Shown piece after piece: positions 5,166 to 21,667 of a DNA stretch of 64,000 bases (positions are counted from its first letter, which is position 1; the number at the start of each line of letters is the position of its first letter). The position numbers and the translations under genes are program-made. Below the pieces are notes generated by a model that saw nothing but the letters and a program-made list of their open reading frames with translations, made no database searches and was not told where the DNA came from. The stretch is from Bifidobacterium sp. (lineage in GTDB: Bacteria > Actinomycetota > Actinomycetes > Actinomycetales > Bifidobacteriaceae), in assembly GCA_024104275.1 (NCBI GenBank), contig JAGGHK010000007.1, forward strand, positions 1,654-65,653. Direction: 5' to 3'.

Positions 5166-5582
5166 TCAATCCAGCGGCAGCAGTGCGCTCAAATCGTCGC
5201 GCTCTCCTATCGCGCTGATTCGGCCGGCGTCTTTTTCCTCGTTCCATTTGGTCAGACCGCAAGCCAAGCGCAGCCATACGTCCGGGTCAAGTTCGATGAC
5301 GTCGGGCGGGGTGAGATTATGCGGATCCGAAGCCGGGCCGTCGAGGATTTTCACCGCTCCCCACGGTGCCACGCGCACTTCGACGCCGGGGCCGGGGGCC
5401 TTGTTTTCCAAGAGATACAGCGAATACCGCACCGCCATCGCCCACGTATTACGAGGCAGGTCATTAGGCGAAAACTCGAGCCTCGCCTCAAGTGGTTCGC
5501 CGCGATGCGCGTCCGCCGCCTTGCGCCACTGATCGAGCGCCGCCATGCCCTTCGAAATATCCTGTTCCCGTATCGCTGCCAT
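5166..5582 (-). CDS. bacterial sterol carrier (SCP orthologue) family protein
   Basis: APGPGVEVRVAPWGAV..GP..H..TPP.VIE motif typical of this actinobacterial family. Confidence 0.82.
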   Translation of the reverse strand: MAAIREQDISKGMAALDQWRKAADAHRGEPLEARLEFSPNDLPRNTWAMAVRYSLYLLENKAPGPGVEVRVAPWGAVKILDGPASDPHNLTPPDVIELDPDVWLRLACGLTKWNEEKDAGRISAIGERDDLSALLPLD

Positions 5583-5692
5583 AGCGTCATCGTCCCTCGC
5601 CTTATGGACGGGATGAGGTGAGGAACAATGTCTTGTCGGCTATTGCAATTCCGGTTTTCTGGCGGACGGAATGGTGACATATGAGCAAAACA

Positions 5693-5730
5693 AAACCGCC
5701 GCACTGTCAACAAAGGCGATGCGGCGGTTT
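5693..5730 (-). terminator. intrinsic terminator of the 5752-5967 gene
   Basis: AAACCGCCGCA / TGCGGCGGTTT 11-bp stem followed by a T-rich tail on the minus strand. Confidence 0.75.
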
Positions 5731-5751
5731 GAATAATGAAATGAATAAAGG

Positions 5752-8136: not shown

Positions 8137-9501
8137 TCAGTCTTTCTTATCCGTGTCGGCGGTGCGGTCGGCTTGGCGCTCGTCTGCGTCGGCCGACGCG
8201 GTGCCGAAGAGTTCGGCGGTCTTGAGCTCGTTGTTCATCACACCCGCAAGGCGTTTGATGCCCAGCGTGATCTTGTCCGGCGTCGGATAGCAGAACGAAA
8301 GGCGCATATGGTGCGTACCGCTGCCGTCGAGGAAGAAGCCGGTGCCGGCCACGTAGGCGACTTTCGCGGTGATGGCGCGGGGCAGCATTTCCTTGGAATT
8401 GAGGCCCTCCGGAATCTTCAGCCAGATGTAGAAACCGCCTTTGGGCTTGTTCCAGGAGCAATACGGCAGATACTCGTGCAGCGCCGCGTCCATGGTGTCG
8501 CAGCGTTCCTTGTACATGCCCCGATACTGGCTGATCTGGTGCTTCCAGTCGAAGTTGTCGAGGTAGGTGGTGATGGTCATCTGGCTCATGTTCGGCGGGC
8601 AGAGGATCGACGCCTCGTTGGCCAGGATGAGCTTCTTGCGGATTCCCGGAGGCGCCACGATCCACGCGATGCGCATGCCCGGCGCGATGATCTTGGAGAA
8701 GCTGGAAAGGTAGACCACGTTTTCGGCGTCCATCGAGCGCAGCGCGGGGTAGGTCTGGCCGTTGAAACCGAGCAGGCCGTAAGGGTTGTCCTCGACGATA
8801 AGTACGTGGTATTTGCGCGCGATCTCGATGATGCGCGGGCGGCGCTCGACGCTCATCGTCACGCCTGCGGGGTTATGGAAATTGGGCACGGTATAAAGGA
8901 ACTTGACCTTTTTGCCGGCCTTGAGCTGGGCCTTGATGGTCTCCTCGAACGATTCGGGAATGAGCCCATCCTTGTCGGTCTGCGCGTTGACCACATCGAC
9001 CTGGAAGGACGAGAAGACGCCGAGCGCGCCCACATAATTCGGGGCTTCGGCGATTACGACATCGCCCGGATCGCACATGATGCGCGTGACGAGGTCGATG
9101 GCGTTCTGCGAACCGTTGGAAATCACCACGTCGTCGGGCTGCACGTCCTTGATGCCTTCGAGCGCCATGATCTGCAGCACGTCCTCGCGCAGATGCGGAT
9201 TGCCCTGCGCCGAGCCATACTGCCAGGCCACGTCTCCCTTGTCCACGAGCATTTTGGCGATAAGTTCCGAGAGCTCCTTGAACGGCAGGTATTCCAAATA
9301 CGGCATGCCGCCGGCCAACGAGACCACGTCCGGGCGCGAGGCCGTGGCGAACAGGGCGCGGATTTCGGAGGCGCGCATGTTGCCGGCGCGGGCCGCGTAG
9401 GAGTCGTACCACGGGTCGTTCTTGAAGACCTTGGACTCGGTGGCTTTTGCAGCGGCTTTCCCCTCGTTCGGTTTTCCGGAAATGTTCTTGGTCTCAGACA
9501 T
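8137..9501 (-). CDS. PLP-dependent aminotransferase class I/II
   Basis: SLAGGMP, YTVPNFHNPAG, EDNPY and SFSKIIAPGMRIAW (PLP lysine) motifs; GAAGGGA SD before ATG 9501. Confidence 0.93.
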   Translation of the reverse strand: MSETKNISGKPNEGKAAAKATESKVFKNDPWYDSYAARAGNMRASEIRALFATASRPDVVSLAGGMPYLEYLPFKELSELIAKMLVDKGDVAWQYGSAQGNPHLREDVLQIMALEGIKDVQPDDVVISNGSQNAIDLVTRIMCDPGDVVIAEAPNYVGALGVFSSFQVDVVNAQTDKDGLIPESFEETIKAQLKAGKKVKFLYTVPNFHNPAGVTMSVERRPRIIEIARKYHVLIVEDNPYGLLGFNGQTYPALRSMDAENVVYLSSFSKIIAPGMRIAWIVAPPGIRKKLILANEASILCPPNMSQMTITTYLDNFDWKHQISQYRGMYKERCDTMDAALHEYLPYCSWNKPKGGFYIWLKIPEGLNSKEMLPRAITAKVAYVAGTGFFLDGSGTHHMRLSFCYPTPDKITLGIKRLAGVMNNELKTAELFGTASADADERQADRTADTDKKD

Positions 9502-9710
9502 CAACCATCCCTTCCTTCGGTTGCAGCCCCGAATCAGACGAGCGCCGCCTTCCAAACAGATTTCGCGCGACTAACGAATATAAGAGAAGACTCTAGTCGC
9601 CGTCGCTCCCCGCGCAATCCTCGACGGGAAAACAGCACCGCTTCAACACGCTTCCGGTGGTTTTGGCGATGGGTGTTGTGCGTGATGTTTTGTCTGATAG
9701 CGACATGCAT

Positions 9711-9776
9711 TTGACGGATGAAAACACTATAGTAAAATTAAGGTAATCGTAATTACCTTAACTACGATTACCTTAA
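9711..9776 (+). promoter_or_regulatory. promoter with palindromic operator upstream of the ATPase_2/DUF234 gene
   Basis: TTGACG-N16-TAAAAT; palindrome TTAAGGTAAT-CGTA-ATTACCTTAA (9738-9761); second inverted 14-mer TACGATTACCTTAA (9763-9776). Confidence 0.7.
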
Positions 9777-9809
9777 TGATGATTTCCTTATAAGTGCGGT
9801 GGCTGCAAT

Positions 9810-11246
9810 ATGGTGAATGAGAATACGAAATTTGTAGGCAGAGCTAATGAACTTGACGTACTTGAAAATGCCGCTGCGAGGCGTATATTCCAAATGGTCG
9901 TTGTCTACGGCAGACGGCGCATCGGTAAAACTGCTCTCATCGCTCACTTCTGCAAGAACAGACGAACCCTTTGGTTTACGGCGAAAGAGCAAAGCTCGGC
10001 AATGAATCTGCGAGAGTTCTCACAGCAGATTTTCGAGTTTTTCGATGAGCCGGGGTGGCCGGGAGGCTTTCCGAGTTGGTCGACGGCGTTTGAGCGTATC
10101 GCCAAAAATGCGCGCAAGGATTCGTCGCATCCGTTCGTCTTTGTGTTTGATGAGTTTCCATACGCGGCTGCGGCCGAGCCCGGCTTGGCTTCATCGTTGC
10201 AAATCGCGATAGACCATCAGTTTGAAGACACCAACATGATGTTGATTTTGTGCGGCAGCAATGAAGGTTTTATGGAAAGCAGGGTGCTGGGTAGTAAAAG
10301 TCCGCTTTACGGGCGGCGGACCGCGCAGATTCACTTGCGACCTTTCGATATTTTCGACGCTTCCAAACTCATGCCGTCTAACGCTTCCTGGCTTGACCGT
10401 GTCCATTATTATGCGACGTTGGGCGGTACTCCCTATTATCTCAAGCAACTTGATGCATCCAAGAACTTCGAGGAGAACATTGAGTCCTTGTGCTTTAACG
10501 TCGGTGGCATTCTTTATGAGGAACCGATGATGCTCATGCGGCAAGAGCTTCGTGAGCCGATGCTTTACAACTCCGTGATTGAAGCGGTGGGATCAGGCAA
10601 GACCAAGCCCAAAGCCATAGCTGAGCAGGCTGGGATGGATAAGGATTCCGTTAGTGCGTATCTGAGGACGCTGGAGTCGCTGGGATTGGTGGAACGCAAC
10701 GTACCTCTTGGCGAAAATCCTGCACGCTCTCGTAAGGGGCTTTGGACCATTAAAGACCCGTTTTTCGCTTACTGGTACCGTTTCGTCAGCCCGCGCGCAG
10801 GTCTGATCGATATGGGTCAGGGGCATGCGCCCGCCGTTTACGGCACTTCCGGCGGCGTATTCGAAACGTATGTGGGCCAGCAGTTCGAGCGCATGTGCAT
10901 GCAGTGGCTCTTCCAGCAGTCGCGCGAGGGAAAGTTTGATTTCCTGCCCACGTCATACGGCAAATGGTGGGGCAACGACCCGGTCGCCAAGCAGCAGACG
11001 GACATCGACGTGGTGATGGCTGACGATATCAATAAGAAGGTGCTGTTGGGCGAATGCAAGTGGCGCGAATCGTTCAATGTCAACGAGGCCGCCGAAAAGT
11101 TGATTGAGCGCTCGCCGTTGATTACCGAAAAGGGCGAGAGATTGTATTTCCTATTCAGTAAATTGCCGGTTCGCGGCGACGTCCAAGGCAAAACCCGACA
11201 ACTTGGCCCGTTCACTTTCGTCGACGCCGAGACGATGTTCGGATGA
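9810..11246 (+). CDS. archaeal-type ATPase (ATPase_2) with C-terminal DUF234 PD-(D/E)XK-like domain
   Basis: FVGR..EL, Walker A YGRRRIGKT, Walker B FVFDEFP, LYGRRT, DPFFAYWYRF and C-terminal DIDVV...GECKW. Confidence 0.9.
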   Translation: MVNENTKFVGRANELDVLENAAARRIFQMVVVYGRRRIGKTALIAHFCKNRRTLWFTAKEQSSAMNLREFSQQIFEFFDEPGWPGGFPSWSTAFERIAKNARKDSSHPFVFVFDEFPYAAAAEPGLASSLQIAIDHQFEDTNMMLILCGSNEGFMESRVLGSKSPLYGRRTAQIHLRPFDIFDASKLMPSNASWLDRVHYYATLGGTPYYLKQLDASKNFEENIESLCFNVGGILYEEPMMLMRQELREPMLYNSVIEAVGSGKTKPKAIAEQAGMDKDSVSAYLRTLESLGLVERNVPLGENPARSRKGLWTIKDPFFAYWYRFVSPRAGLIDMGQGHAPAVYGTSGGVFETYVGQQFERMCMQWLFQQSREGKFDFLPTSYGKWWGNDPVAKQQTDIDVVMADDINKKVLLGECKWRESFNVNEAAEKLIERSPLITEKGERLYFLFSKLPVRGDVQGKTRQLGPFTFVDAETMFG

Positions 11247-11284
11247 TTGGGATTTCTGTGTTGCGATGGTTGTCGATAGTAACG

Positions 11285-11473
11285 TTAATGCAGGATTATT
11301 AATGTTTCTAATGTCGGATTATTGATGACTCTAATGTAGGATTATCGATATTCCTAATGTCGGATTGTGGCATTCTGTCGATAGGAGAAATGCTGTAATA
11401 TCAACGATTATGGTTTGTTGATCACTTGACAAGTAAAAAATCAACAAATCCTAATGTCGGATTGTTGATGTTT
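11285..11473 (+). repeat. 4 x 23-bp tandem iteron-like array plus a fifth copy at a promoter
   Basis: Units start at 11285, 11308, 11331 and 11354 (core CTAATGTCGGATT); fifth copy at 11451, just downstream of TTGACA (11426-11431). Confidence 0.88.
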
Positions 11474-11483
11474 TTAACGCAGG

Positions 11484-11672
11484 ATCGTGGAGGTCAAGGC
11501 TTCCGGCGATTTCCGTGGGCGGCAGGGCAAAGTCCTGACGGATATCGGCGACGCCCTGGATGTGCCGGATTTCAGCCGGCTGATCGTCTACCGTGGCGAC
11601 GCATCGCAGATGGTGCGCAGGCTCAAAGTCGTCGCCGCCCAGGATTACCTGCGGTTCGAGGACGGGAGCTGA
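11484..11672 (+). pseudogene. C-terminal remnant of an AAA_14/DUF4143 ATPase
   Basis: EVKASGDFRGRQGKVL...YRG...DYLRF aligns without gaps to the C-terminus of 17728-18957 (23/56 identical); in-frame TAA at 11475-11477 shows the gene body is gone. Confidence 0.85.
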
Positions 11673-12018
11673 GCGGGTTGAGACCTATGGCTGCGCATAT
11701 GCCAGAACCCAGATGTGAAGGTGTGCGCAAGGCCGACGGTTGTTTGGCTCGTCGGCCCGCACGCGGTATATGGAAGGGCCTTAGATAACCCCATCGGTTT
11801 CGGTCTGCGGAGTGAAGTCCATGTTGGCCACCGTAAAGCTTCGCAGGTGAAAAGCCTCAACCGACATATCCATTATGCCACAGAAAACAAATCTTGAGGC
11901 TGTCTGCTCCTGGCTTCGTGCCCTCGGCTCCGGTCGGGGGCACGTTTCTCTTTTAGCCGTTGTCGGTGGAGAGGATAGATGCTTGTATGGAATCGGGCTG
12001 GCTCGTCTTGTGGCCTTG

Positions 12019-14903
12019 TCAGTGGCGACTGGCCCAGCGGTTGCGGGTGTGTCGGGTGACGGCCACCACTGCAAGGGCGAGTATGCCTGCGCCGAGGAGC
12101 AGCAGCAGGTTGCGCAGGAGCTGCTCGCGTGTGATGCCGGTGAGCGGTATCGCGGAGACGGGTTCCACCGATGGCGGGAACGTGTAGTTGAAGCCGTTGA
12201 CGATGTACGTTCCCCTTGGGCTGGCGGTGGCGGCGCGGGCGGCGAGGGCGCTGGTGTTGCCGGTCCATGCGGGGCTGGTGATGCCGCTCTTGTCGGTCCA
12301 GGTGTGGTCGGGCATGTTGGTGAAGGCGTTGTTGCCGGCGGCGTTCTTGAGTGTGGTCTTCTTGCCGAGTCTGAGGGCCTGGAGGTTTGCTGGGAACATC
12401 TGGTTCATGCTGGTGGCGCTGCCGGTGTCCCAGCCGTTGAGGTCGAGGGCCTTGAGGTTGGGGTTGTTGTCGAAGACGTAGTGCATGTCTGTGACGTTGT
12501 GGGTGTCCCAGCCGCTGACGTCGAGGCTGGTGAGGTTGGAGAGGTTGAAGGTGTCGCCCATGTCGGTGACCTGGCTGGTGTCGAGGTTCTTGAGCCCGGT
12601 GATGGTGGTGAGGTTGGGGTCCTGCCAGAACATGCCGAACATGTCGGTGTTGCCGGAGCCGTTGAGGTTGGTGACGTCGATGGTCCTGACCTTGGGGAGC
12701 CTGCCGAACAGGAGGCGGCCTCCGGCGTAGGTGGCCTGGCCGGTGTTGGACGCGAGTCTGACGCCGGGCTTGACGGTGGCGGAGGTGACGCTGTCGTCGG
12801 TCCAAGGGACTTTGGTGTCATGGGTGGTGCCGGCTGAGTGGTCGGGCACGGTGCCGGAGTCGAGGCTGAGCACGCATTCCGCGCTCTCGCCCTCGCCGGT
12901 GAGCGTCTCGCTCCAAGTCAGCGTGCCCCAGGTGTGGGTGCCGGGCTGCGTGCACGCCGTCGGGAACGAATAGGAGACGCCGGAGACCACGTACTCGCCG
13001 AGAGGATTGGTGCTCGCGCGCGTAGCCAGTTGGACGGTGGTGCCGCTCCATGGCGGGTTGAGGCTGTCCGGTGGGTTGTGGCTTCCGCTCTTATCCACCC
13101 AAGTGGCGGCCTGGTTGACGTCAGCGAATGCGGCGTTCGGTGACGTGTTCAACAGCTTGGTCTTCTTGCCAAGCCTAAGCGCCTCCAGATTTGGCGGCAG
13201 CATCCCGGTCACGTCGGTAGCGCCCGTGGTGTCCCAATTATATAAATCAAGGGTGGTGAGTTTAGCATCGTTTTGGAACATCCGATACATGCTGTAACCG
13301 GTTGTAACCTTTGCGGTTTCCCATCCACCTATCCCCTTCAACGTTTCCAGGTCAGGACAGTTTGCAAAAAGATAATGCATATCTTCGACGTTTTTCGTAT
13401 CCCAATTGGATAAGTCGAGTTCTTTCAAGCCAGTGGTGTTGAACGAGCCTCCCATGTCTTTAACGGCAGAGGTGTCCCAGTTTTCCAATCCTGTGATTTT
13501 GGTGAGTGATGGATCTTTCCAGAAAATACCGAACAGATCCGTATTCCCAACAGTATATAAGTTGCCCAAGTTGGCAGTTTTGAGCGATGGCAAGGTGCTG
13601 AACAGAAGACGTCCGCCTGTTGGGGCAAGATTGACGTCTTCTTTTACTTCGATATCGATGATACTGTCGTTGACCCAGGGGGTGGGAATATCGTTTGCTG
13701 CGGATGACCCTTGGTGGTCGGGTACAGTGCCGTTGGTGAAGGTGAGGGTGCATTCGGAGAGTGCACTGTCTGGCGTCTCCTGCCAGTCGAGGGTGTGGGT
13801 GTTGTCGGTCCAGTGGTGGCGTCCGGCTTTGGTGCACACGAGTCCCGAATTCTTGTACATGTCGGTCTGGTCAGCGTTAGCGGGTATATCGAGTCCGGGG
13901 TTGCCGATGGTTTTAAGATTGGTGCAGTTCTGGAACATATTGTTCATGTAGACTGCGGCGGCTGTGCCCCAACCGGACAAGTCCAGGGTATTAAGCTTTA
14001 CGTCATTGTAAAACATAAAGCTCATATCGCGAACAGCATCAGTATTCCATTGGGTGATACCGGGCAGTGACGTGAGATTGGGACAATCCCGAAATGCCTC
14101 TTTCGTATCGGTGATGTTCTTGGTGTCCCATTGTTCAAGACCAGTGATTTCGGTGAGTAGTCCGCAGTCGAGGAAAAGCCAGCGTATTGATTTGGTGGTT
14201 GGATTGCTGAGGTCGATGCCGTTGACTTGAGCTGTTTTTAAGGCATGCATGTGAGCGAAGAGGTTGGCGCCGTCCAATGCGACGACGTTGCCAGTGACGA
14301 TGACTTTGGTGACGGTGTACTCTTGGTTGTTTATATGCCAAGGTCCGATTGCCATGTAATTGATGGCGTTGTCAGGTATTGTCCCGCTTTCGAGTTCCAG
14401 CACGCAGTCGTTGCCATCGATGTGCTCGTTCCAATGTAGCGGATCGGTACCGCCGCTTTCTGGCCATTTGTGTTCGCCGGGCTTGGCGCAGGTTACGTCC
14501 TGCGGGCCGACGGCGGTTTTGGCGGGGTTGCCATCGGTTTTCTTTGCGTTGTTGGCTGAAGGTTCCTTGTTGTCGGTTTTCGCTGCGTCGGAGGCTGTCG
14601 GTTTGGTGGTGTCGGAATCTGCTGTCTTGGAAACGTCAGGCTTGGTCTTGCCGGTGTCTTCTTTTGGTGTCGAAGGATTTGTCTCAGTGGGCGTTGAGTT
14701 GTTTTCGCCCGATTCCGTGGTTTTCGGATTCTGCGCAGATTGTGGCTGGGAGGTTATCGCGTTTTCAGCGATTGCGGACGGGGGGTGCTTGATTGTGCGT
14801 TGTCAAGGCCGGATTGCGGTGCGGGGGCGTTGGCGGATAGCAGCGCGAGGGCGGTGAACATGACCGCGATCTTGCCGCCAATACCGTTGTGCCGCAACGC
14901 CAT
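12019..14903 (-). pseudogene. BspA-like leucine-rich-repeat (DUF285) sortase-anchored surface protein, frameshifted
   Basis: AAGGAGG SD and signal peptide from ATG 14903; frame shifts at a C6 tract (G6 at 14780-14785 on plus); downstream frame open 14802 to 12019; three WDT/LDTS-type LRR blocks; IPLTG + TM + basic tail. Confidence 0.85.
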
Positions 14904-15061
14904 TCCGGAGCCTCCTTGTAAAGCCACACCCAACACTGCGTCTAATAAACCATACAAGGTTAAGAATACCGTTTCGACAGTACAACTATGTCTTACGCCG
15001 CGGAATCGTCACAATATGTTCGACTGTGCCGGGAATGCCTCAGCATGACCGGATGTGGCGC

Positions 15062-15361
15062 TTAATCTGAAGCTTGGCCGGCCTTGTGGTTCAGGTAGGC
15101 CATGGCGTTGGCGGCGTTGCCGAACGTCGGCGAATCGTCGGGCACTTTCCCGTCGGCTCTTTCCTGCGCGTATCGCATCGCCTCGAGGGTGGCTTTTCGG
15201 GGGTTGTCGGCGAAGGGGCGCTCGGTGAAGATGCCATCGAGATCATCCATGGTGATTTCCCGATTCGGATGGAGCACCAAACCGATCGTTTCTGGAGTGG
15301 TGTGTGCGTAACTGTCGGAGGTTTCTTCCCCTATGGTCTTATCACCTCGCTGGTTGTTCAT
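15062..15361 (-). CDS. small protein whose C-terminus resembles RelB/DinJ antitoxins
   Basis: GAAAGGGG SD; PF..NP...TLEAM..A..........F....AM..L pattern recalls the DinJ C-terminus; N-terminus not recognised. Confidence 0.5.
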   Translation of the reverse strand: MNNQRGDKTIGEETSDSYAHTTPETIGLVLHPNREITMDDLDGIFTERPFADNPRKATLEAMRYAQERADGKVPDDSPTFGNAANAMAYLNHKAGQASD

Positions 15362-15408
15362 CGTTCCCCTTTCCTGCTTTGCAAAACGGCTGATTGTTTA
15401 TGGGCGGC

Positions 15409-15433
15409 AGTTGGTGCAAATTTTGCACCAACT
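15409..15433. promoter_or_regulatory. perfect palindrome (operator or terminator)
   Basis: AGTTGGTGCAAA-T-TTTGCACCAACT, 12-bp arms, ~50 bp upstream of the 15361 start and at the AlbA_2 gene stop. Confidence 0.65.
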
Positions 15434-17045
15434 AGAATTTCTCTGAGCTCTTCCTTGTTGGTGTCGGCAACGTATAACGCGTGGCCGAGCCTTTACCTGT
15501 GCGGCGCAGAACACCGTCTGCGACGAGCTTGCGTAGGATTCCCTTGGCTTTTGTTGGCCCCGAGCCGAGCAATTGTTGTGTTTCAGCCCTGGTGATGTCA
15601 CTGTGTGTGCCGAGGTAGGCAAGTATGATGTCCCGTTCGTTACCTTTCCGAATTTCAGTGTCGATTGATGTTGAAGCAGCCGGAACGGGTGCGGTGGTAT
15701 TGCCATCAAGGTGAGGCAATTGGGCGTCGGTGTCAATGGCGGTGGGAGGCTCCCCGCTATCAGGATTTTGCGCTTTGCTCTTGCCAAGAGGGTGACCCTT
15801 GCCCTCAGCCGCGCTCAAGGTGAACGCAAGTTGTGTGCGGTCTGGGTCGAACGATTCCGTCAACCGGGGGTCGGGAAGGCCGGCCCAATCGCAACCTGCT
15901 CGCATGGCGTCGAAGCCGCTGCCCGCGCGTTCGGCGATGGAGATGAGCGAGAACATCTTCAGCAACGTGGGGTTGCGGGAATCGGAAATGCCGCCGGCCA
16001 TCGCCACGTCGGCGGGGATTCGCAGGCCGCCGGGGTTGGCGAAGGTGATCTTGTCCTTTTGCAGGATGATGACGGTGTTGCCACGCATGTAATAATCGGC
16101 GTGGATGAGGGTGTTGGCAAGCGCCTCGCGCAAAGCCAGGTGCAGAGGGGTGTCGTCGATCCTGCGTGAGTCGGCATTGACCATGAACGGCCTCGGCACT
16201 GCTTGGGTCAGCCTCTGCCAGACGCGCAGCCAGAAATCATAGAGGTTTCCGCTCCATTCCCCATCGCCGCTGACTATTCTGTGGTCCCAACGATTGGTGC
16301 CGTTTAGCTGCTCCCTGTAGTCGAGGAAAAAGTACGGAAATTCGCGCGTAATCATCCATTCCTTGCCGAACATTAGTAGGCCGGCGCGGGTCGGGCGGGG
16401 TTTGTTGCCCTCGCCTTTGGCGCTCGCTCCCAGGCGCAAGAGGAATTCGTCGGTATCGAGTGTGAGCCAGGGGTGGTTGGGCCGCGCGGCGCTCATGGTG
16501 TTGCGGTACGCGTTGACGGTGCCTTGGTTGAGGTCGTCCAGCGAGAATTTTTCAAGCGGCATCTGATCCAGGGTGATGGTGCCGTCGCCTTTGTCTCGTA
16601 CCATCGCGTGGTATTCCTCTTCAGAGCATTGGTAGTCTCCTTCGCCGTTGCGGCGGTAGGTGCCGCCGATGGGGTTGCGGTTGAGATATAGGGGTTTGGA
16701 CTCGCGTTCCGCGCGTGGAACATGGATCACGACTATGGAAGCGTTGTCGACCGGTTCTATCGAAACATCTTCCTCATCAAGCACGTTGGCGCTGACTTTT
16801 TTGCGATCGTTGGCCGTGTCCCAGAAATTTTTCACTATACGTTCTGGGTCTCTTAAACCTGTAGGAATCAGGTTGTGATGCGTGTCTTCGCTGACGCCGA
16901 GCAGGATTATTCCGCCATTAGTGTTCGCGAAGGCGGAGTAAGTTTCCCAGACGCTTTTGGGAACGCCGCCTTCTGCACTCTTCGCTTCAAGGCGGTTGCC
17001 TTCGTGCCAGTGTCTCAATTCTTTGAGATCGAACATGACTGCCAT
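15432..17045 (-). CDS. Schlafen/AlbA_2 domain + HATPase_c_4 (RecG C-terminal-like) + C-terminal HTH protein
   Basis: EGNRLEAK, SAFANTNGGIILLGV, REALANTLIHADY, NPGGL, RNPTL, ERAGSG and C-terminal ITRAETQQLLG...L..LV..G.L. Confidence 0.88.
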   Translation of the reverse strand: MAVMFDLKELRHWHEGNRLEAKSAEGGVPKSVWETYSAFANTNGGIILLGVSEDTHHNLIPTGLRDPERIVKNFWDTANDRKKVSANVLDEEDVSIEPVDNASIVVIHVPRAERESKPLYLNRNPIGGTYRRNGEGDYQCSEEEYHAMVRDKGDGTITLDQMPLEKFSLDDLNQGTVNAYRNTMSAARPNHPWLTLDTDEFLLRLGASAKGEGNKPRPTRAGLLMFGKEWMITREFPYFFLDYREQLNGTNRWDHRIVSGDGEWSGNLYDFWLRVWQRLTQAVPRPFMVNADSRRIDDTPLHLALREALANTLIHADYYMRGNTVIILQKDKITFANPGGLRIPADVAMAGGISDSRNPTLLKMFSLISIAERAGSGFDAMRAGCDWAGLPDPRLTESFDPDRTQLAFTLSAAEGKGHPLGKSKAQNPDSGEPPTAIDTDAQLPHLDGNTTAPVPAASTSIDTEIRKGNERDIILAYLGTHSDITRAETQQLLGSGPTKAKGILRKLVADGVLRRTGKGSATRYTLPTPTRKSSEKF

Positions 17046-17052
17046 CCTCGCA

Positions 17053-17260
17053 TCGGTCGTTTATCGGTCGTGGTCAAAGTAAAAGGCCTTGGACGCGACC
17101 GATATATCGTATAAATAGTAATTGTATCGGTCGTTCGTGACCGATGCGCGACCGATAAAGCGGTATTTGCGTCCGATAACGACCGAGAGTCGGTCGTTCG
17201 CGACCGATACGCGGGAATTTGTGACCGATACGCGGGAATTTGCGACCGATGTGAGACCGA
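17053..17260. repeat. GACCGA/TCGGTC motif cluster with a 21-bp tandem repeat
   Basis: 12 exact hexamer copies in ~210 bp; 21-bp unit G(C/T)GACCGATACGCGGGAATTT at 17200 and 17221, partial third at 17242. Confidence 0.85.
17082..17171 (+). repeat. ~90-bp direct repeat, copy 1
   Basis: AAAGGCCTTGGACGCGACCGATATATCGTATAAA... aligns without gaps to 18918-19007; internal CGACCGATA/TATCGGTCG palindrome. Confidence 0.88.
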
Positions 17261-17533
17261 TGTGCGACGGGTAAACGTGCAGTTGCGTCCGATACGTGAC
17301 AGTTGTGGTGCCGCTGGCGTCGAAGGTGAATTGCGTGGCCCGCCGGGTCTTGGCTAGAACCAACCATGCCCCGATCCAAAAGAATCGGAGGGCGCAATAT
17401 CGGTATCGCCGTGCCATATAGACACCGCCTAAGACTAGGTCGTTGTAGATTTATGGAAGGCGATCGAATGGACCGTTGAAGTGGGGCGTCTCCCCGCCTG
17501 TTAAAAGTAGGTGATTTTGAATGCTCCAAATCG

Positions 17534-17625
17534 CTATGTCAGTGATTTGAAAGTACCTATGTCAGGATTATGGAGATTTCTACATCAGTGATTTGAAAAT
17601 TACTATGTCAGTGATTTGAAATATG
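17534..17625 (+). repeat. 4 x 23-bp tandem iteron-like array upstream of the AAA_14/DUF4143 gene
   Basis: Units start at 17534, 17557, 17580 and 17603; consensus CTATGTCAGTGATTTGAAA. Confidence 0.9.
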
Positions 17626-17727
17626 ATAAGTCATGATTTTGGAAGTGCGGCAAACGCTAAAGAAACGGTTGCCAAGTCGGAGGCCGCACCTAATCGTCAG
17701 ACAGATTGCCAAGTCGAGGAGGGTCAA

Positions 17728-18957
17728 GTGATACCAAGGACGCTTGAGAGCTATACGCGCAAACTGGCGACGTGGTTTCCTGTGGTTTCCGTCACCGGCC
17801 CCAGGCAGAGCGGCAAGTCCACGCTGATTCGTCACGTATTCAAGGACTATGAATATCTCAACCTTGAAGACCCGGAGGTGCGTAGGGCCGCAGCCTTAGA
17901 TCCGGTAGGATTCATCAGGGATCGCCCGGCCAAGCTCATCATCGACGAAGCGCAATACGTCCCCGACCTGTTCTCCATGATTCAGGTGGAATCCGACGAA
18001 CGCAATACGCCCGGGCAGTACATCATCTCCGGTTCGCAGAATTTCCTGATGCTGAAAAACATCAAGCAATCACTTGCGGGGCGTGTGGGCATCATGAAGC
18101 TGCTGCCGCTTTCATTCGCGGAAGCCCAAGCCTCTGAACGTAAGCCGAGTGTCGACGAATTCATGTTGAGAGGTGGCTATCCGCGGCTTTACGACATCGA
18201 TATCAGTCTGGGAACGTATTTCCGCAGCTACACCGACAGCTATATCGAGCGGGACGTCACCGATTACCTTGACGTACGCAATAGCACCGATTTTCGCACG
18301 TTTCTGCGTCTGTGTGCGCAAAATGCCGGGAATCTGGTCAATTACACCGGCATGGCGGACGATTTGGGGGTCAGTTTCAGAACAGTGAAATCATGGTTGT
18401 CGATTCTGGAATCGAGTTATATAACCTTCCCGTTGATGCCGTATTACAAAAGCGTCGGCAAACGGCTTGTCAAGACTCCTAAACTGTATTTCTATGATAC
18501 CGGGCTGCTCTGCAATCTTCTTGGTATCCGCAGCCTGCAGGAGCTTTTGGTGCATCCCAAGCTCGGTGCGGTCTTTGAGAACCTTATCGTTGCGGAGACT
18601 GCCAAGCGTTGCTACAACGCCGGTGAGGAGCCGGAACTTTACTTTTACCGTGACGAGAGCAAGCGTGAGATAGATCTGGTGGATCTGGCTCGGCCTGCCG
18701 AGCCGCTGCTGCTTGAAGTCAAATCTTCCAGGACATATAACAATCGACAAAGCAAGTCGCTTGCGGAAGTGGGCGAGGAGCTTGGCGTGCCCCCGGAGCA
18801 CAGGGCCGTGATCTATCGCGGCAGTGAACAAGCGCAGATGAAGAAGTCGGCGTTGGTGCGGGCGGCGGATTACCTTCGGTTTGACTATCCGGAGGGTACG
18901 CTGCCCGTGGAGGGCCGAAAGGCCTCGGACGCGACCGATATATTGTATAAAAATTAA
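17728..18957 (+). CDS. AAA_14 ATPase with DUF4143 (PD-(D/E)XK-like) domain
   Basis: GAGGAGG SD before GTG 17728; Walker A GPRQSGKST, Walker B IIDEAQ, GSQ, LAGR, GGYP, KTPKLYFYDTG, EIDL...EVK. Confidence 0.92.
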   Translation: MIPRTLESYTRKLATWFPVVSVTGPRQSGKSTLIRHVFKDYEYLNLEDPEVRRAAALDPVGFIRDRPAKLIIDEAQYVPDLFSMIQVESDERNTPGQYIISGSQNFLMLKNIKQSLAGRVGIMKLLPLSFAEAQASERKPSVDEFMLRGGYPRLYDIDISLGTYFRSYTDSYIERDVTDYLDVRNSTDFRTFLRLCAQNAGNLVNYTGMADDLGVSFRTVKSWLSILESSYITFPLMPYYKSVGKRLVKTPKLYFYDTGLLCNLLGIRSLQELLVHPKLGAVFENLIVAETAKRCYNAGEEPELYFYRDESKREIDLVDLARPAEPLLLEVKSSRTYNNRQSKSLAEVGEELGVPPEHRAVIYRGSEQAQMKKSALVRAADYLRFDYPEGTLPVEGRKASDATDILYKN

Positions 18958-19007
18958 CTATATTGGTCGTTCGCGGCCGATAAGCGTCCGATAAGGCGGC
19001 GTTTGCG
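18918..19007 (+). repeat. ~90-bp direct repeat, copy 2 (overlaps the 3' end of the AAA gene)
   Basis: AAAGGCCTCGGACGCGACCGATATATTGTATAAA... matches 17082-17171. Confidence 0.88.
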
Positions 19008-19014
19008 CCCGCCT

Positions 19015-21507
19015 TTAGTACATCGCAACGTGGTTGATGTAGAGGGAGTGGTTGGGCAGGGAGTCCATGGGGACCCAGAGCAGGAAGTCCTGGGACTTGA
19101 CGGGCTTCTGCAGCTTGACCTCGGTGGTGCCGCTTTGGTCGAAGGTGAACTGCGCGACGCGCTGGCCGGCGTTCGGGTCCTGCGCGGAATTGGCGATGAG
19201 GTAGCCGGTGCCGCCGGACGTGCGGATCTGAACGACAAAGCGGGTGACGGTGGCCGGCTGGCTGATGTGCATGTAATACGCCAAGCCGTCCTGTCCGGCC
19301 GGGCTCTGATAGAACTCCTGCTTGTCGATGGTCAACGGCGTATTGTTCACGGGAATCGAAGGCGTGGGTACGGCGTTGGCGATCTTGTCGGCCCGCTTCA
19401 CCTTGGAGCCGGAACCGGCCTCGGACTTTGACGCAGATCCGTCCGAAGTCTCGGATGAGGAGGTGCCGCCCTGCTTGTTGGAATTGCCGGAATTGTCGCT
19501 ACTGCCGGCGTTTTGGTCCGCGTTGTCGCCTCCGTTGCCTTCCGCTCCGAAAGGCACGTTGTTGAGGTTCATCTTGGGCCACGGGTCGGAGCTGGATCGC
19601 TGGTAGGAACCGGTGCCCTTGCTGTTGTGGTCGATCAGTACGAACGCGGCGACTCCTGCGGCCGCAAGAATCAGCACGATGACGGCGATGATGGCGACGA
19701 CCTTGGTCGTGAGCTTGCCCAAAAGCGGGGTATCGGCGATGTCGTCGCCGGTCGGGTTGTCGGATTCCTGCTGGGTTTTCTGCGCGGGCGTGAAGCTGGG
19801 AGGCGTGATCACCGGGTTGGCGGCGTCGATTGCTTCCTGCTCGGCTTGCAGCGCGGCCGCGGACTCGTGTCCGGGCTCGATGAAATTGCCGTCGGCGTCG
19901 AGCAGCGGGATGCGGCCCGTCGCCTCGGTGCGGTTGCCGGGGGTGGTGTCGTGCGCGTTGGGGGTGTTGCCCTTCATCGCAAAGTCGAATTGCATCGTGG
20001 GATTGGTGGTCTGCACGGTGTTCTGGTCGAAGTCCGGGAAAATGGAATCGTCGGCCGTGGAATCGAAGGATTTGAAAGCGTCCGCCATCTCCGCGGCGGC
20101 CAGATCGTGCAGATCCATGCGCGGGGCTGCGGCGTTGTCGAGGTCGTTGGAAACGGTCTGGTTGCCGCCCGACTTGCCGCGTTGACGCCACCATCTCGAA
20201 GACCTGTCTTGTGCAGGGGAGGCCGGATTCGCGTTTTGTGCGGCAGAGGAATGGACACTTGGGTTGTTTGCGCCGGAAACCGTTGAAACGGCCAGGCTGC
20301 CTGACGCGGCACCGCTTTCGGCGGGCAATGGCGACGAGACGTTTTGCGCTGAAGCCGCGTTTGAAGCGGCCGACGCGTTGCCGATATCGCCGGAATTTCC
20401 GTTGGTGTTCCCGCCTTCGGATTTCGGTTGGTTCGCGGAGCCGAGCTTAACCGGGTTGGCATTCCCTTGCGCGGCGGCAGGTGCTGTAGGAGATGCGGAA
20501 GCGGCGGGAGAACCGGCAGGAGCGGCTCCTGCGCCCGCATGTTTTTGCGCTGCGTCCGCCAGAGCACTAGCACCCGCGGCTGCAGCGACGCCATTGGCCG
20601 CCGCCGACTCTGCGGCGCTGGCCGCCTGACGCGCGCGGAACTGCAGCTGGTTGGTCGAAAGGTTCTGCGGGAAATCAAGCAGATTGGCCGGCCGTGCCCT
20701 GCGCAACCGAAGTCGCGAGATGGAAGCCTCGCCGTCGGAATTCGGCCGTTTCAGTTCTTTTGCAGGAAGTTTCGCCACCGGTTTGGCATCGCCGAGCAGG
20801 GCGACGAGTTCGGAAAGGGAAACCATCGAAAGGGTGGGGCTCCCGTCCGCACCCTTGATGGGCAATCCGCGTTCGCAGATGATGCGCAATTCTTCCGGGG
20901 TGTCTTCCGGAAGTGCGGAAAGGTCGAAATCCTTGATTTCCGCGCTCCATTTGCCGGTGAGCATGGCATAAAGCAGACCGGCGAGTTCGTGGACGGCCAG
21001 CATTTCCGGTTCCAGGTGCTGTTCGTCAGGACTATTGACGAACATCGCTTCGAGCGGGGCATCGGCGATCTGAACGCCCTTGGATGTAATACGTATAATA
21101 TCGGTGCTCAAAGCCCGCATCTTCACGTCGTCGCGAAGCAGCGTTTCCAAGCCATCGGCGACTTCGGCGAGGATGGAACGCATCGCTTCGCTTCCAAGCT
21201 TGCGCGTGCCATGGCCGATGTAATTGTTGAGCGAAAGCCCCTGGTCGAGATGCGTGATGAGCACAGGGATGTCACCGACGTGCTGCATCTGGATGACCTG
21301 CGTGAAATGCGGGTTGCGCGAAAGGGTGAGCGTCGATGCGATGGCCTCGAAGCTCGGAATCGCGGCCTTGTCGGTGACGATGAACAGCTGGCAGTCACGC
21401 GCGAGAACACGGTCGTTGGCCTTCCAAGCTTCGAGCCCGGGTATGCTACGCAGCGGCGACACCAACGTATATCTGCTGATGACGATATCTCCCAGCTGTG
21501 GCTTCAT
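19015..21507 (-). CDS. MurJ-associated pseudokinase-like membrane protein
   Basis: N-terminal kinase-like fold (W.A.D.VL.R) lacking canonical HRD/DFG, long Ala/Ser/Asn linker, one TM and a C-terminal extracellular domain; GAGGA SD; adjacent to murJ. Confidence 0.8.
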   Translation of the reverse strand: MKPQLGDIVISRYTLVSPLRSIPGLEAWKANDRVLARDCQLFIVTDKAAIPSFEAIASTLTLSRNPHFTQVIQMQHVGDIPVLITHLDQGLSLNNYIGHGTRKLGSEAMRSILAEVADGLETLLRDDVKMRALSTDIIRITSKGVQIADAPLEAMFVNSPDEQHLEPEMLAVHELAGLLYAMLTGKWSAEIKDFDLSALPEDTPEELRIICERGLPIKGADGSPTLSMVSLSELVALLGDAKPVAKLPAKELKRPNSDGEASISRLRLRRARPANLLDFPQNLSTNQLQFRARQAASAAESAAANGVAAAAGASALADAAQKHAGAGAAPAGSPAASASPTAPAAAQGNANPVKLGSANQPKSEGGNTNGNSGDIGNASAASNAASAQNVSSPLPAESGAASGSLAVSTVSGANNPSVHSSAAQNANPASPAQDRSSRWWRQRGKSGGNQTVSNDLDNAAAPRMDLHDLAAAEMADAFKSFDSTADDSIFPDFDQNTVQTTNPTMQFDFAMKGNTPNAHDTTPGNRTEATGRIPLLDADGNFIEPGHESAAALQAEQEAIDAANPVITPPSFTPAQKTQQESDNPTGDDIADTPLLGKLTTKVVAIIAVIVLILAAAGVAAFVLIDHNSKGTGSYQRSSSDPWPKMNLNNVPFGAEGNGGDNADQNAGSSDNSGNSNKQGGTSSSETSDGSASKSEAGSGSKVKRADKIANAVPTPSIPVNNTPLTIDKQEFYQSPAGQDGLAYYMHISQPATVTRFVVQIRTSGGTGYLIANSAQDPNAGQRVAQFTFDQSGTTEVKLQKPVKSQDFLLWVPMDSLPNHSLYINHVAMY

Positions 21508-21667
21508 AATGTCCTCGACCCTACGCAAACAAATGTAAAAAGTATCAGGCGGCAAACCGCCCCTCTTATTCTATCCGTGGCTGTAGCCGTGGCGGGAGAT
21601 TTTGTGGCAAAGTTTCGTGTCGATTTGTCGGGCGATTTTGGCTTGGCCTGTCCGGATTCGCGTCGTC

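Follow-up and report, generated by a model that had tools for sequence, protein, structure and literature searches.

Introduction

PDC-S01 systems, in which an ATPase is fused to a PD-(D/E)XK domain, are very common in prokaryotes and have not been validated experimentally (PMC12988326). PDC-S01 is reported to rank fourth in abundance among defence systems and candidates across all prokaryotes (PMC12988326), and its orthologous group, COG1373, belongs to the PD-(D/E)XK proteins (PMC3424549). Together with PDC-S27, it has been treated as an abundant, unvalidated ATPase-PD-(D/E)XK candidate (PMC12988326, PMC3424549). In the papers searched, we found no description of repeat arrays located before DUF4143 genes.

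Arrays of phased direct repeats are known from theta plasmids. The iterons of P1, F, R6K and pPS10 adjoin autoregulated Rep genes, and orphan sets of such repeats can titrate Rep.

Here, we describe a locus in the genome of a Bifidobacterium strain of the bee-gut group (G000), contained in a 64,000-nucleotide stretch of DNA that was analysed as a whole (hereafter, the window). At this locus, an array of 23-bp repeats is fused to a 61-codon open reading frame (ORF) that is homologous to the last approximately 60 residues of PADLOC PDC-S01 (COG1373; AAA_14 + DUF4143). The ORF, referred to below as the stump, extends from beta3 to the C-terminus and lacks the ATPase, the winged helix and a complete active site; it is a remnant of the family rather than a member of it. 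The scar, i.e. array plus stump, is an ordinary kind of gene remnant, in this case of a candidate anti-phage ATPase-nuclease gene.

Materials and methods

Remnants were sought in 151 species of the genus using a profile of the C-terminal 59 residues, after which every short open frame was inspected. The substitution pattern of the stump was evaluated on three sequences (147 aligned bases) by a permutation in which the realised mutation types were kept and the sites were shuffled. This permutation replaced a simulation based on the four-fold-site spectrum, which overstated significance. The structure of the protein encoded at 17728 (the 17728 protein) was modelled using AlphaFold2 (pLDDT 83, pTM 0.85).

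Results and discussion

Organization of the scar and its surroundings

The scar lies in a chromosomal island. This island is bordered by an aminotransferase gene on the minus strand (8137-9555) and by a large gene of the pseudokinase-like type (19015-21555). The coordinates of its features are listed in Table 1.

Table 1. Features of the scar and neighbouring loci in the window
Feature	Position	Strand	Remarks
ATPase_2/DUF234 gene (PADLOC PDC-S27)	9810-11246	+	Intact; directly upstream of the scar
Repeat units u1-u4	11286-11377	+	Operator-like array of the presumably lost PDC-S01 gene; core TAATGYnGGATTnTnGAT
Spacer	11378-11451	+	G000 only; contains a degenerate unit (11396-11413), palindrome arms and TTGACA
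Repeat unit u5	11452-11474	+	TAATGTCGGATTGTTGATGTTTT; kept in G015 and G101
Junction unit u6	11475-11490	+	Degenerate sixth repeat; core TAACGCAGGATCGTGG; missing from the first-pass annotation
PDC-S01 gene stump (61 codons)	11487-11672	+	GTG 11487 to TGA 11672; start codon probably created at the junction
Terminator-like hairpin and T-run	11917-11944	+	Detected by terminator scan
Intact paralogue locus	17533-18957	+	Private 23-bp array (CTATGTCAGTGATTTGAAA type) at about 17533-17645; PDC-S01 gene at 17728-18957

The first-pass annotation of this DNA had described four 23-bp repeats, a fifth repeat further downstream, and a TTGACA sequence flanked by a TGTTGAT/ATCAACA palindrome, and had interpreted them as an intact array and promoter. 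All of the sequence elements were recovered. The four units start at 11286, 11309, 11332 and 11355, at a spacing of exactly 23 bp, and u5 is the fifth repeat, although it starts 97 bp past the start of u4 and is therefore 5 bp out of phase with u1-u4. TTGACA is located at 11426-11431, between palindrome arms at 11407-11422 and 11440-11455 that are 88% complementary. The promoter itself, however, was not recovered: a consensus scan of 11150-12050 detected no sigma-70-like promoter and no -10 sequence at 16-18 bp past TTGACA (TAATGT lies 20 bp downstream of it), and segment 11371-11451, which includes TTGACA and the palindrome, is present in neither of the two other species that carry the scar (G101 and G015, see below). 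As judged from this comparison, the segment is not a conserved part of the element. An alignment of the three scar species likewise revealed no conserved -10 sequence, and in intact relatives the array directly adjoins the ribosome-binding sequence (RBS).

The array contains at least three direct repeats with a 23-bp period and a conserved core, and a search for its two-unit pattern identified a single site in G000 (the reversed control pattern yielded 0 hits). No intact DUF4143 gene is present within approximately 100 bp downstream; instead, the array is fused to the stump. A structured RNA was also considered as a candidate for the scar region and rejected, as all of the Rfam matches were far below the threshold.

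The product of the gene directly upstream matched Pfam ATPase_2 (1e-23) and DUF234 (4e-21) as well as PDC-S27 (4e-61), and this gene has a different array of its own, located upstream at 9720-9790. Because the scan of 11150-12050 detected no terminator-like site between the last approximately 100 bp of the PDC-S27 gene and the array, the PDC-S27 transcript may read into the array and the stump. The hairpin downstream of the stump probably served as the terminator of the lost gene originally, and it is shared with a convergent adhesin gene.

The stump corresponds to the end of a PDC-S01 gene

The first-pass annotation had also noted an in-frame stop after the array, followed by a fragment in which 23 of 56 residues are identical to the C-terminus of the 17728 protein. 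Both observations were reproduced: a TAA codon at 11475-11477 closes the frame upstream of the stump, and BLASTP aligned the stump with residues 329-386 of the 17728 protein (23/58 identities, E 4e-14), which is itself a clear PDC-S01 protein (PADLOC, 1e-99). Profile searches, which had been proposed as a check on the relation to DUF4143, gave a divided answer. The Pfam and PADLOC HMMs produced no hit with the 61 amino acids alone (0 Pfam families at E up to 1), whereas hhalign aligned them, with 83% probability (E 9e-6), with the C-terminal columns in a profile built from 10 paralogues of G000. The failure of Pfam is expected because the DUF4143 model (PF13635) ends at ExK, where the stump begins. 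An alignment with 12 intact relatives showed the stump to be homologous to the C-termini of the family past ExK. Of the PD-(D/E)XK domain, it retains beta3 (E-V-K), the next helix, strands beta4 and beta5, and the C-terminal helix.

In the model of the 17728 protein, the predicted nuclease core consists of helix 279-297 (E284), strand 304-308, strand 314-319 (D316), strand 327-332 (E330, K332), helix 339-352, strands 359-363 and 375-378, and helix 379-384. The top PDB fold match to the full model was 2qen, a Walker-type ATPase of Pyrococcus, and the next matches included Cdc6/Orc1 and STAND proteins. Of the catalytic set, the stump retains E-V-K only, and the residues corresponding to E284 and D316 are in the deleted part. 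The 61-codon ORF contains no AAA_14 P-loop ATPase domain, and the 240 bp that separate the stop codon of the upstream gene from the ORF showed no N-terminal homology. AlphaFold2 predicted no confident fold for the stump alone, for which the alignment is shallow (mean pLDDT 52.4, pTM 0.33). The GTG codon is conserved among the scar copies, but GGA located just 2 nt 5' of it does not constitute a good Shine-Dalgarno sequence. The G + C contents at the three codon positions (GC1/2/3) of the stump are 0.71/0.40/0.81.

The genome of G000 contains a second PDC-S01 pseudogene outside the window (contig C3:6624-7630). It retains residues 1-300 with two frameshifts, is preceded by a 3-unit 23-bp array (CTATGTCATGATTAnC) and an RBS, and is 68-75% identical to the 17728 protein; it stops after ...FENLIVAETAKQYCNEGKT, and the nuclease strands are missing. 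We ruled out this pseudogene as the missing half of a split gene, as its array is of another type and residues 301-328 are found in neither piece.

Repeat arrays accompany PDC-S01 genes

Nine arrays with a 23-bp period were identified in G000; five of them immediately precede DUF4143 genes and have a different sequence in every case. The array at the scar and that of the 17728 gene have the general core alone in common. Arrays with the core of the scar (CTAATGTnGGATTnTGG) and the same period are found 10-60 bp before the start codons of intact PDC-S01 genes in five other species (G027, G098, G062, G019 and G035), where they comprise 3 to about 13 units; the array type is therefore native to this family of genes, as the first-pass annotation had assumed. 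Other PDC-S01 clades possess related yet distinct cores, such as CTAAGTCATGATTTTAC, CTATGTCAGGATTAYCC and CTACAGCATAATTATGG, and the core co-varies with the gene clade. This co-variation in sequence suggests that each array may be bound by the protein encoded downstream. Among intact members of the clade, the N-terminal part shows 60-76% identity and the C-terminal 60 residues show 27-56%; given such a fast-evolving C-terminus, the 29-41% identity of the stump fits a lost member of the clade. The array of G062 (L009, about 1493-1745) is expanded, with approximately 13 alternating A and B units of 23 bp (TAATGTAGGATTGTGGAGCTCGC / TAATGTATGATTGTGGAGTTTTC) before an intact PDC-S01 gene.

The same junction is present in three species

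Among the 151 species of the genus and the 236 species of the family, the stump was found in just two species in addition to G000, namely G101 and G015. The junction, GGAT[TC]GTGG joined to AGGTCAAGG, is identical in all three. In the window, it falls between 11490 and 11491, with a margin set by the shared GTGG(AG), and lies inside a repeat unit.

Synteny between G101 and the window extends over the entire island, from which G101 lacks the PDC-S27 gene and segment 11371-11490. Because its four units align in register with u1-u4 (9 differences in 83 aligned bases, 11288-11370), the sequences are most simply explained by a loss of 120 bp from G101 between the GTGG sequences of u4 and u6. The array has diverged by 11%, as compared with 29% at four-fold sites, a difference that overstates its conservation inasmuch as AT-rich non-coding DNA may mutate more slowly. 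G101 has lost the 17728 gene and kept both arrays. At the locus orthologous to 17533-17645 (L023, 14177-14260), four CTATGTCAGTGATTTGAAA units are followed by the end of a convergent core gene. In the stump of G101, the last approximately 12 codons are inverted (L003, about 1676-1735, orthologous to 11629-11661); this inversion is bounded by inverted AGGCTnAGGCTCGTC copies and looks like a template-switch or hairpin mutation.

In G015, the scar is located approximately 100 kb from the syntenic genes, between sulfate-symporter and fatty-acid genes and just past a PDC-S27 gene. Its homology to the window comprises the stop codon of S27 and the spacer, a single unit and the junction unit, and the ORF; most of the alignment consists of the units plus the ORF (11452-11658), together with the stretch from the S27 stop codon through the spacer to u1. 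The S27 gene is in the equivalent position, and its protein is 52% identical to that of G000.

The first-pass annotation had expected that an intact allele might be found in related strains, which was not the case. No intact allele was detected by DNA and protein searches of the 151 genus and 236 family genomes, by a word-indexed protein search, or in metagenome contigs searched by protein and DNA pattern, and in a search of 1.84 billion protein representatives the sole matches were the stump and a 74-aa piece at the edge of a 635-bp contig. Contigs with close homologues of the flanking aminotransferase contain no intact allele and mostly show an empty site (L036-L048). The slot corresponding to 9700-19010 is empty in G099, G102, P0005 (L036) and several bee-gut metagenome contigs, P0005 being the closest to G000 by the flanking aminotransferase (90% identity), and it is occupied by different genes in G096. 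This slot is an insertion/deletion hot spot. The turnover of these cassettes that had been proposed earlier is thus well illustrated by an island that changes fast and is empty in the closest relatives.

Homologues of a flanking gene are present in Bifidobacterium sp. ESL0745 and ESL0769. The island edge of ESL0745 (L038, about 5500-5750) carries an orphan PDC-S27-type array (ATTACCTTAATCGTG) with neither an S27 gene nor the scar, as well as an adhesin gene and other genes; repeats of the ATTACCTTAATCGTG type are those found at 9720-9790 in the window.

Truncated remnants across the genus

The genus-wide search identified 14 independent 5'-truncated remnants in the 151 species. Their similarity to the full-length protein starts at approximately residues 118, 122, 177, 259, 262, 270, 310, 311, 318, 324, 327, 328 (the scar), 336 and 356, and, apart from the first few codons, none of them retains any N-terminal portion of the protein. 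An array is present at or near the junction in eight of the 14: it is fused in or just past a unit at the scar and in G013, G060, G050 and G076, lies close by in G150, and is kept with the RBS, the ATG and a few codons before the deletion in G095 and G020. Array-anchored deletion is therefore the commonest form of 5'-truncated remnant of the family in the genus, and either deletions end preferentially at the gene-proximal edge of the array or there is a preference for keeping arrays. A programmed deletion site was considered and rejected: none of the 11 intact genes inspected holds an internal copy of the array core. At one orthologous locus, two units are fused to a remnant that starts at approximately residue 122 in G050 (L061). 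In G059 and G075 (L005 and L006), the same locus consists of four TAATGTnGGATTATGG units followed by a terminator hairpin only, with no gene.

Since the junctions of independent remnants normally differ, the identity of the junction sequences supports a single event as the source of the scar in the three species.

Substitution pattern of the stump

If one old deletion produced the scar, the differences among its copies postdate the death of the gene, and a neutral pattern would be expected. The observed pattern is different. Of the 32 substitutions among the scar copies, 19 are synonymous as compared with 10.2 expected (permutation, P 0.0006); by branch, the permutation yielded P 0.003 for G101 and P 0.04 for G000 plus G015. 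The numbers of differences at the first, second and third codon positions are 4/4/15, 2/5/8 and 6/7/16 in the three pairs. Third positions have diverged at about the neutral rate (15/49, 31%) and first and second positions by only approximately 8%. The dS and omega values between G000 and G101 are 0.60 and 0.12 for the stump and 0.39-0.67 and 0.05-0.18 for the four flanking core genes. The GC3 of the stump (0.80-0.82) is similar to that of core genes, as compared with 0.56-0.66 in intact PDC-S01 paralogues. No indels occur in the 147 bp aligned among the three species, whereas the flanks are unalignable. An in-frame 3-nt insertion in G015 preserves the natural QDYLRF end. On this sequence evidence, the stump is not decaying neutrally and appears to have changed more in the manner of a working gene than of junk DNA.

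The most likely alternative is that the scar has the origin proposed here but is now a neutral relic that has so far escaped deletion, with chance or base composition accounting for the synonymous excess and the conservation of the repeats. The lack of an RBS and of a conserved promoter and the absence of an independent predicted fold of the stump are in line with this interpretation. The same can be said of the G101 copy, which looks relaxed because its last approximately 12 codons are inverted and its GC3 has decreased to 0.63, and of the G015 branch, which is near-neutral when taken alone (4 synonymous and 6 non-synonymous substitutions). In addition, the sample is small, as the selection signal comes from three sequences and 147 aligned bases; small remnants may outlast others under a deletion bias, and eight of the 14 remnants start after residue 300. 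Simple neutrality is, however, difficult to reconcile with the permutation results, both overall and on the G101 branch, with the concentration of divergence at third positions, with 147 bp free of indels between unalignable flanks, and with the persistence of the scar in three species and two genomic contexts when the island is empty in the closest relatives. We therefore place this alternative on the unlikely side, without dismissing it.

Origin and possible roles of the scar

The scar very probably originated by an array-anchored internal deletion of a PDC-S01 gene. The first-pass annotation had inferred the loss of the 5' part of the gene with retention of the array, and this conclusion stands: approximately 328 codons and the leader, roughly 1.0-1.1 kb in total, are missing. 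In our preferred reading, a PDC-S01 gene encoding an AAA_14 ATPase, a winged helix and a DUF4143/PD-(D/E)XK nuclease would once have stood behind its own 23-bp array. One old deletion of about 1.0-1.1 kb, probably at the short GTGG(AG) microhomology, would have joined position 16 of the last unit to the V-E-V-K codons (ExK), removing the RBS and approximately 328 codons and creating the GTG codon at the junction, and the scar would then have passed into at least three bee-gut Bifidobacterium species.

The array may well still be bound by a PDC-S01 paralogue through its winged helix. Such a binder would be non-cognate because none of the three scar genomes contains an intact gene with the array type of the scar. 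The first-pass annotation had suggested that the array may act as a binding site or decoy for the paralogue at 17728; the arrays of the two loci, however, have no more than a general core in common, and G101 keeps both arrays after losing the 17728 gene. The array type is unique in each of these genomes, and a role as a decoy for the cognate protein was rejected on this basis. The stump is probably transcribed, either by read-through from the PDC-S27 gene or from the array region, and its low-level translation may yield a 61-aa peptide, which would be unable to cut DNA. We consider this reading as a whole, in which an old deletion spread and left a scar that is not inert, to have slightly better than an even chance of being correct; whether constraint acts on the array plus the ORF is, in our estimation, close to an even question. 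A more specific version of it holds that the array and the stump form a maintained mini-module and that arrays are recurrent hot spots at which stumps are made. The stump, expressed under the retained repeats or from the PDC-S27 gene, would then modulate full-length PDC-S01 paralogues with its half nuclease fold, for example as a dominant-negative partner or decoy. We regard this version as unlikely.

It is also conceivable that the gene was intact until recently and that two or three independent truncations occurred at one microhomology, or that the junction was spread by recombination onto intact alleles. In that case, the low omega would reflect selection on the full-length gene, and no function of the stump would be needed. 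The 5' ends could indeed differ, as the junction unit of G101 (TAATGTCGGATTGTGG) equals u4 of G000 and both G000 and G015 use u6; moreover, array-anchored deletions are frequent, and an independent remnant in G095 starts one or two codons away, at L-V-E-I-K. The G101 unit is, however, equally well explained by a later 120-bp deletion from unit to unit, and the gene-side junction is base-identical in all three scar species, whereas those of the other remnants are scattered from approximately residue 118 to residue 356. Furthermore, no intact allele was found in the 236 family species, the 1.84 billion protein representatives or the metagenome contigs searched, and none of the 11 intact genes inspected contains an internal copy of the array core by which a repeatable deletion could be directed. 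We consider such parallel truncation improbable. Finally, we give very little credence to a scenario in which a resident DUF4143 gene had its 5' part displaced and replaced by an inserted PDC-S27 cassette (C-terminal displacement): although the PDC-S27 gene is immediately upstream in G000 and G015 and gene-end relics are found elsewhere in the island, G101 has the identical junction without an S27 gene, the DNA joined to the stump is a DUF4143-type repeat unit rather than S27 DNA, and the different array of the S27 genes sits upstream of them, at 9720-9790.

The scar and the related remnants outline a route by which PDC-S01 genes are lost, namely deletion from their own repeat array into the nuclease-coding part with the array left behind. 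This pattern of loss suggests that the array is a site of either fragility or protection, and gene-less arrays provide natural substrates for binding tests. Should further genomes bear out the coding-like conservation of the stump, the stump would represent a fragment of a defence gene that has been kept for a new role; otherwise, the scar is a pseudogene remnant of the ordinary kind, in an island that changes fast.

Comparison with known systems

The arrays of DUF4143 genes have a 23-bp period, 3-14 units and a private, clade-linked core, and are located just before the start codon in intact relatives. The array at the scar differs from the others in having no gene, in the fusion of its last unit to the stump and, in G000 only, in containing an out-of-phase insert. 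Like the iterons of theta plasmids, these arrays consist of phased direct repeats of approximately two helical turns beside the gene of a presumed binder. Unlike iterons, the scar is chromosomal and has no replication gene, and the presumed binder would be an ATPase-nuclease rather than a Rep protein.

The scar resembles ordinary pseudogenes created by microhomology deletion in that few bases are shared at the junction and the slot is empty in close relatives. It differs from ordinary pseudogene remnants in that the junction is common to three species, the substitutions are coding-like and the 5' end recurs at the array. What is new here is that the junction is shared, that the stump has evolved in a coding-like manner and that array-anchored deletion is the commonest form among the 5'-truncated remnants of this family in the genus.
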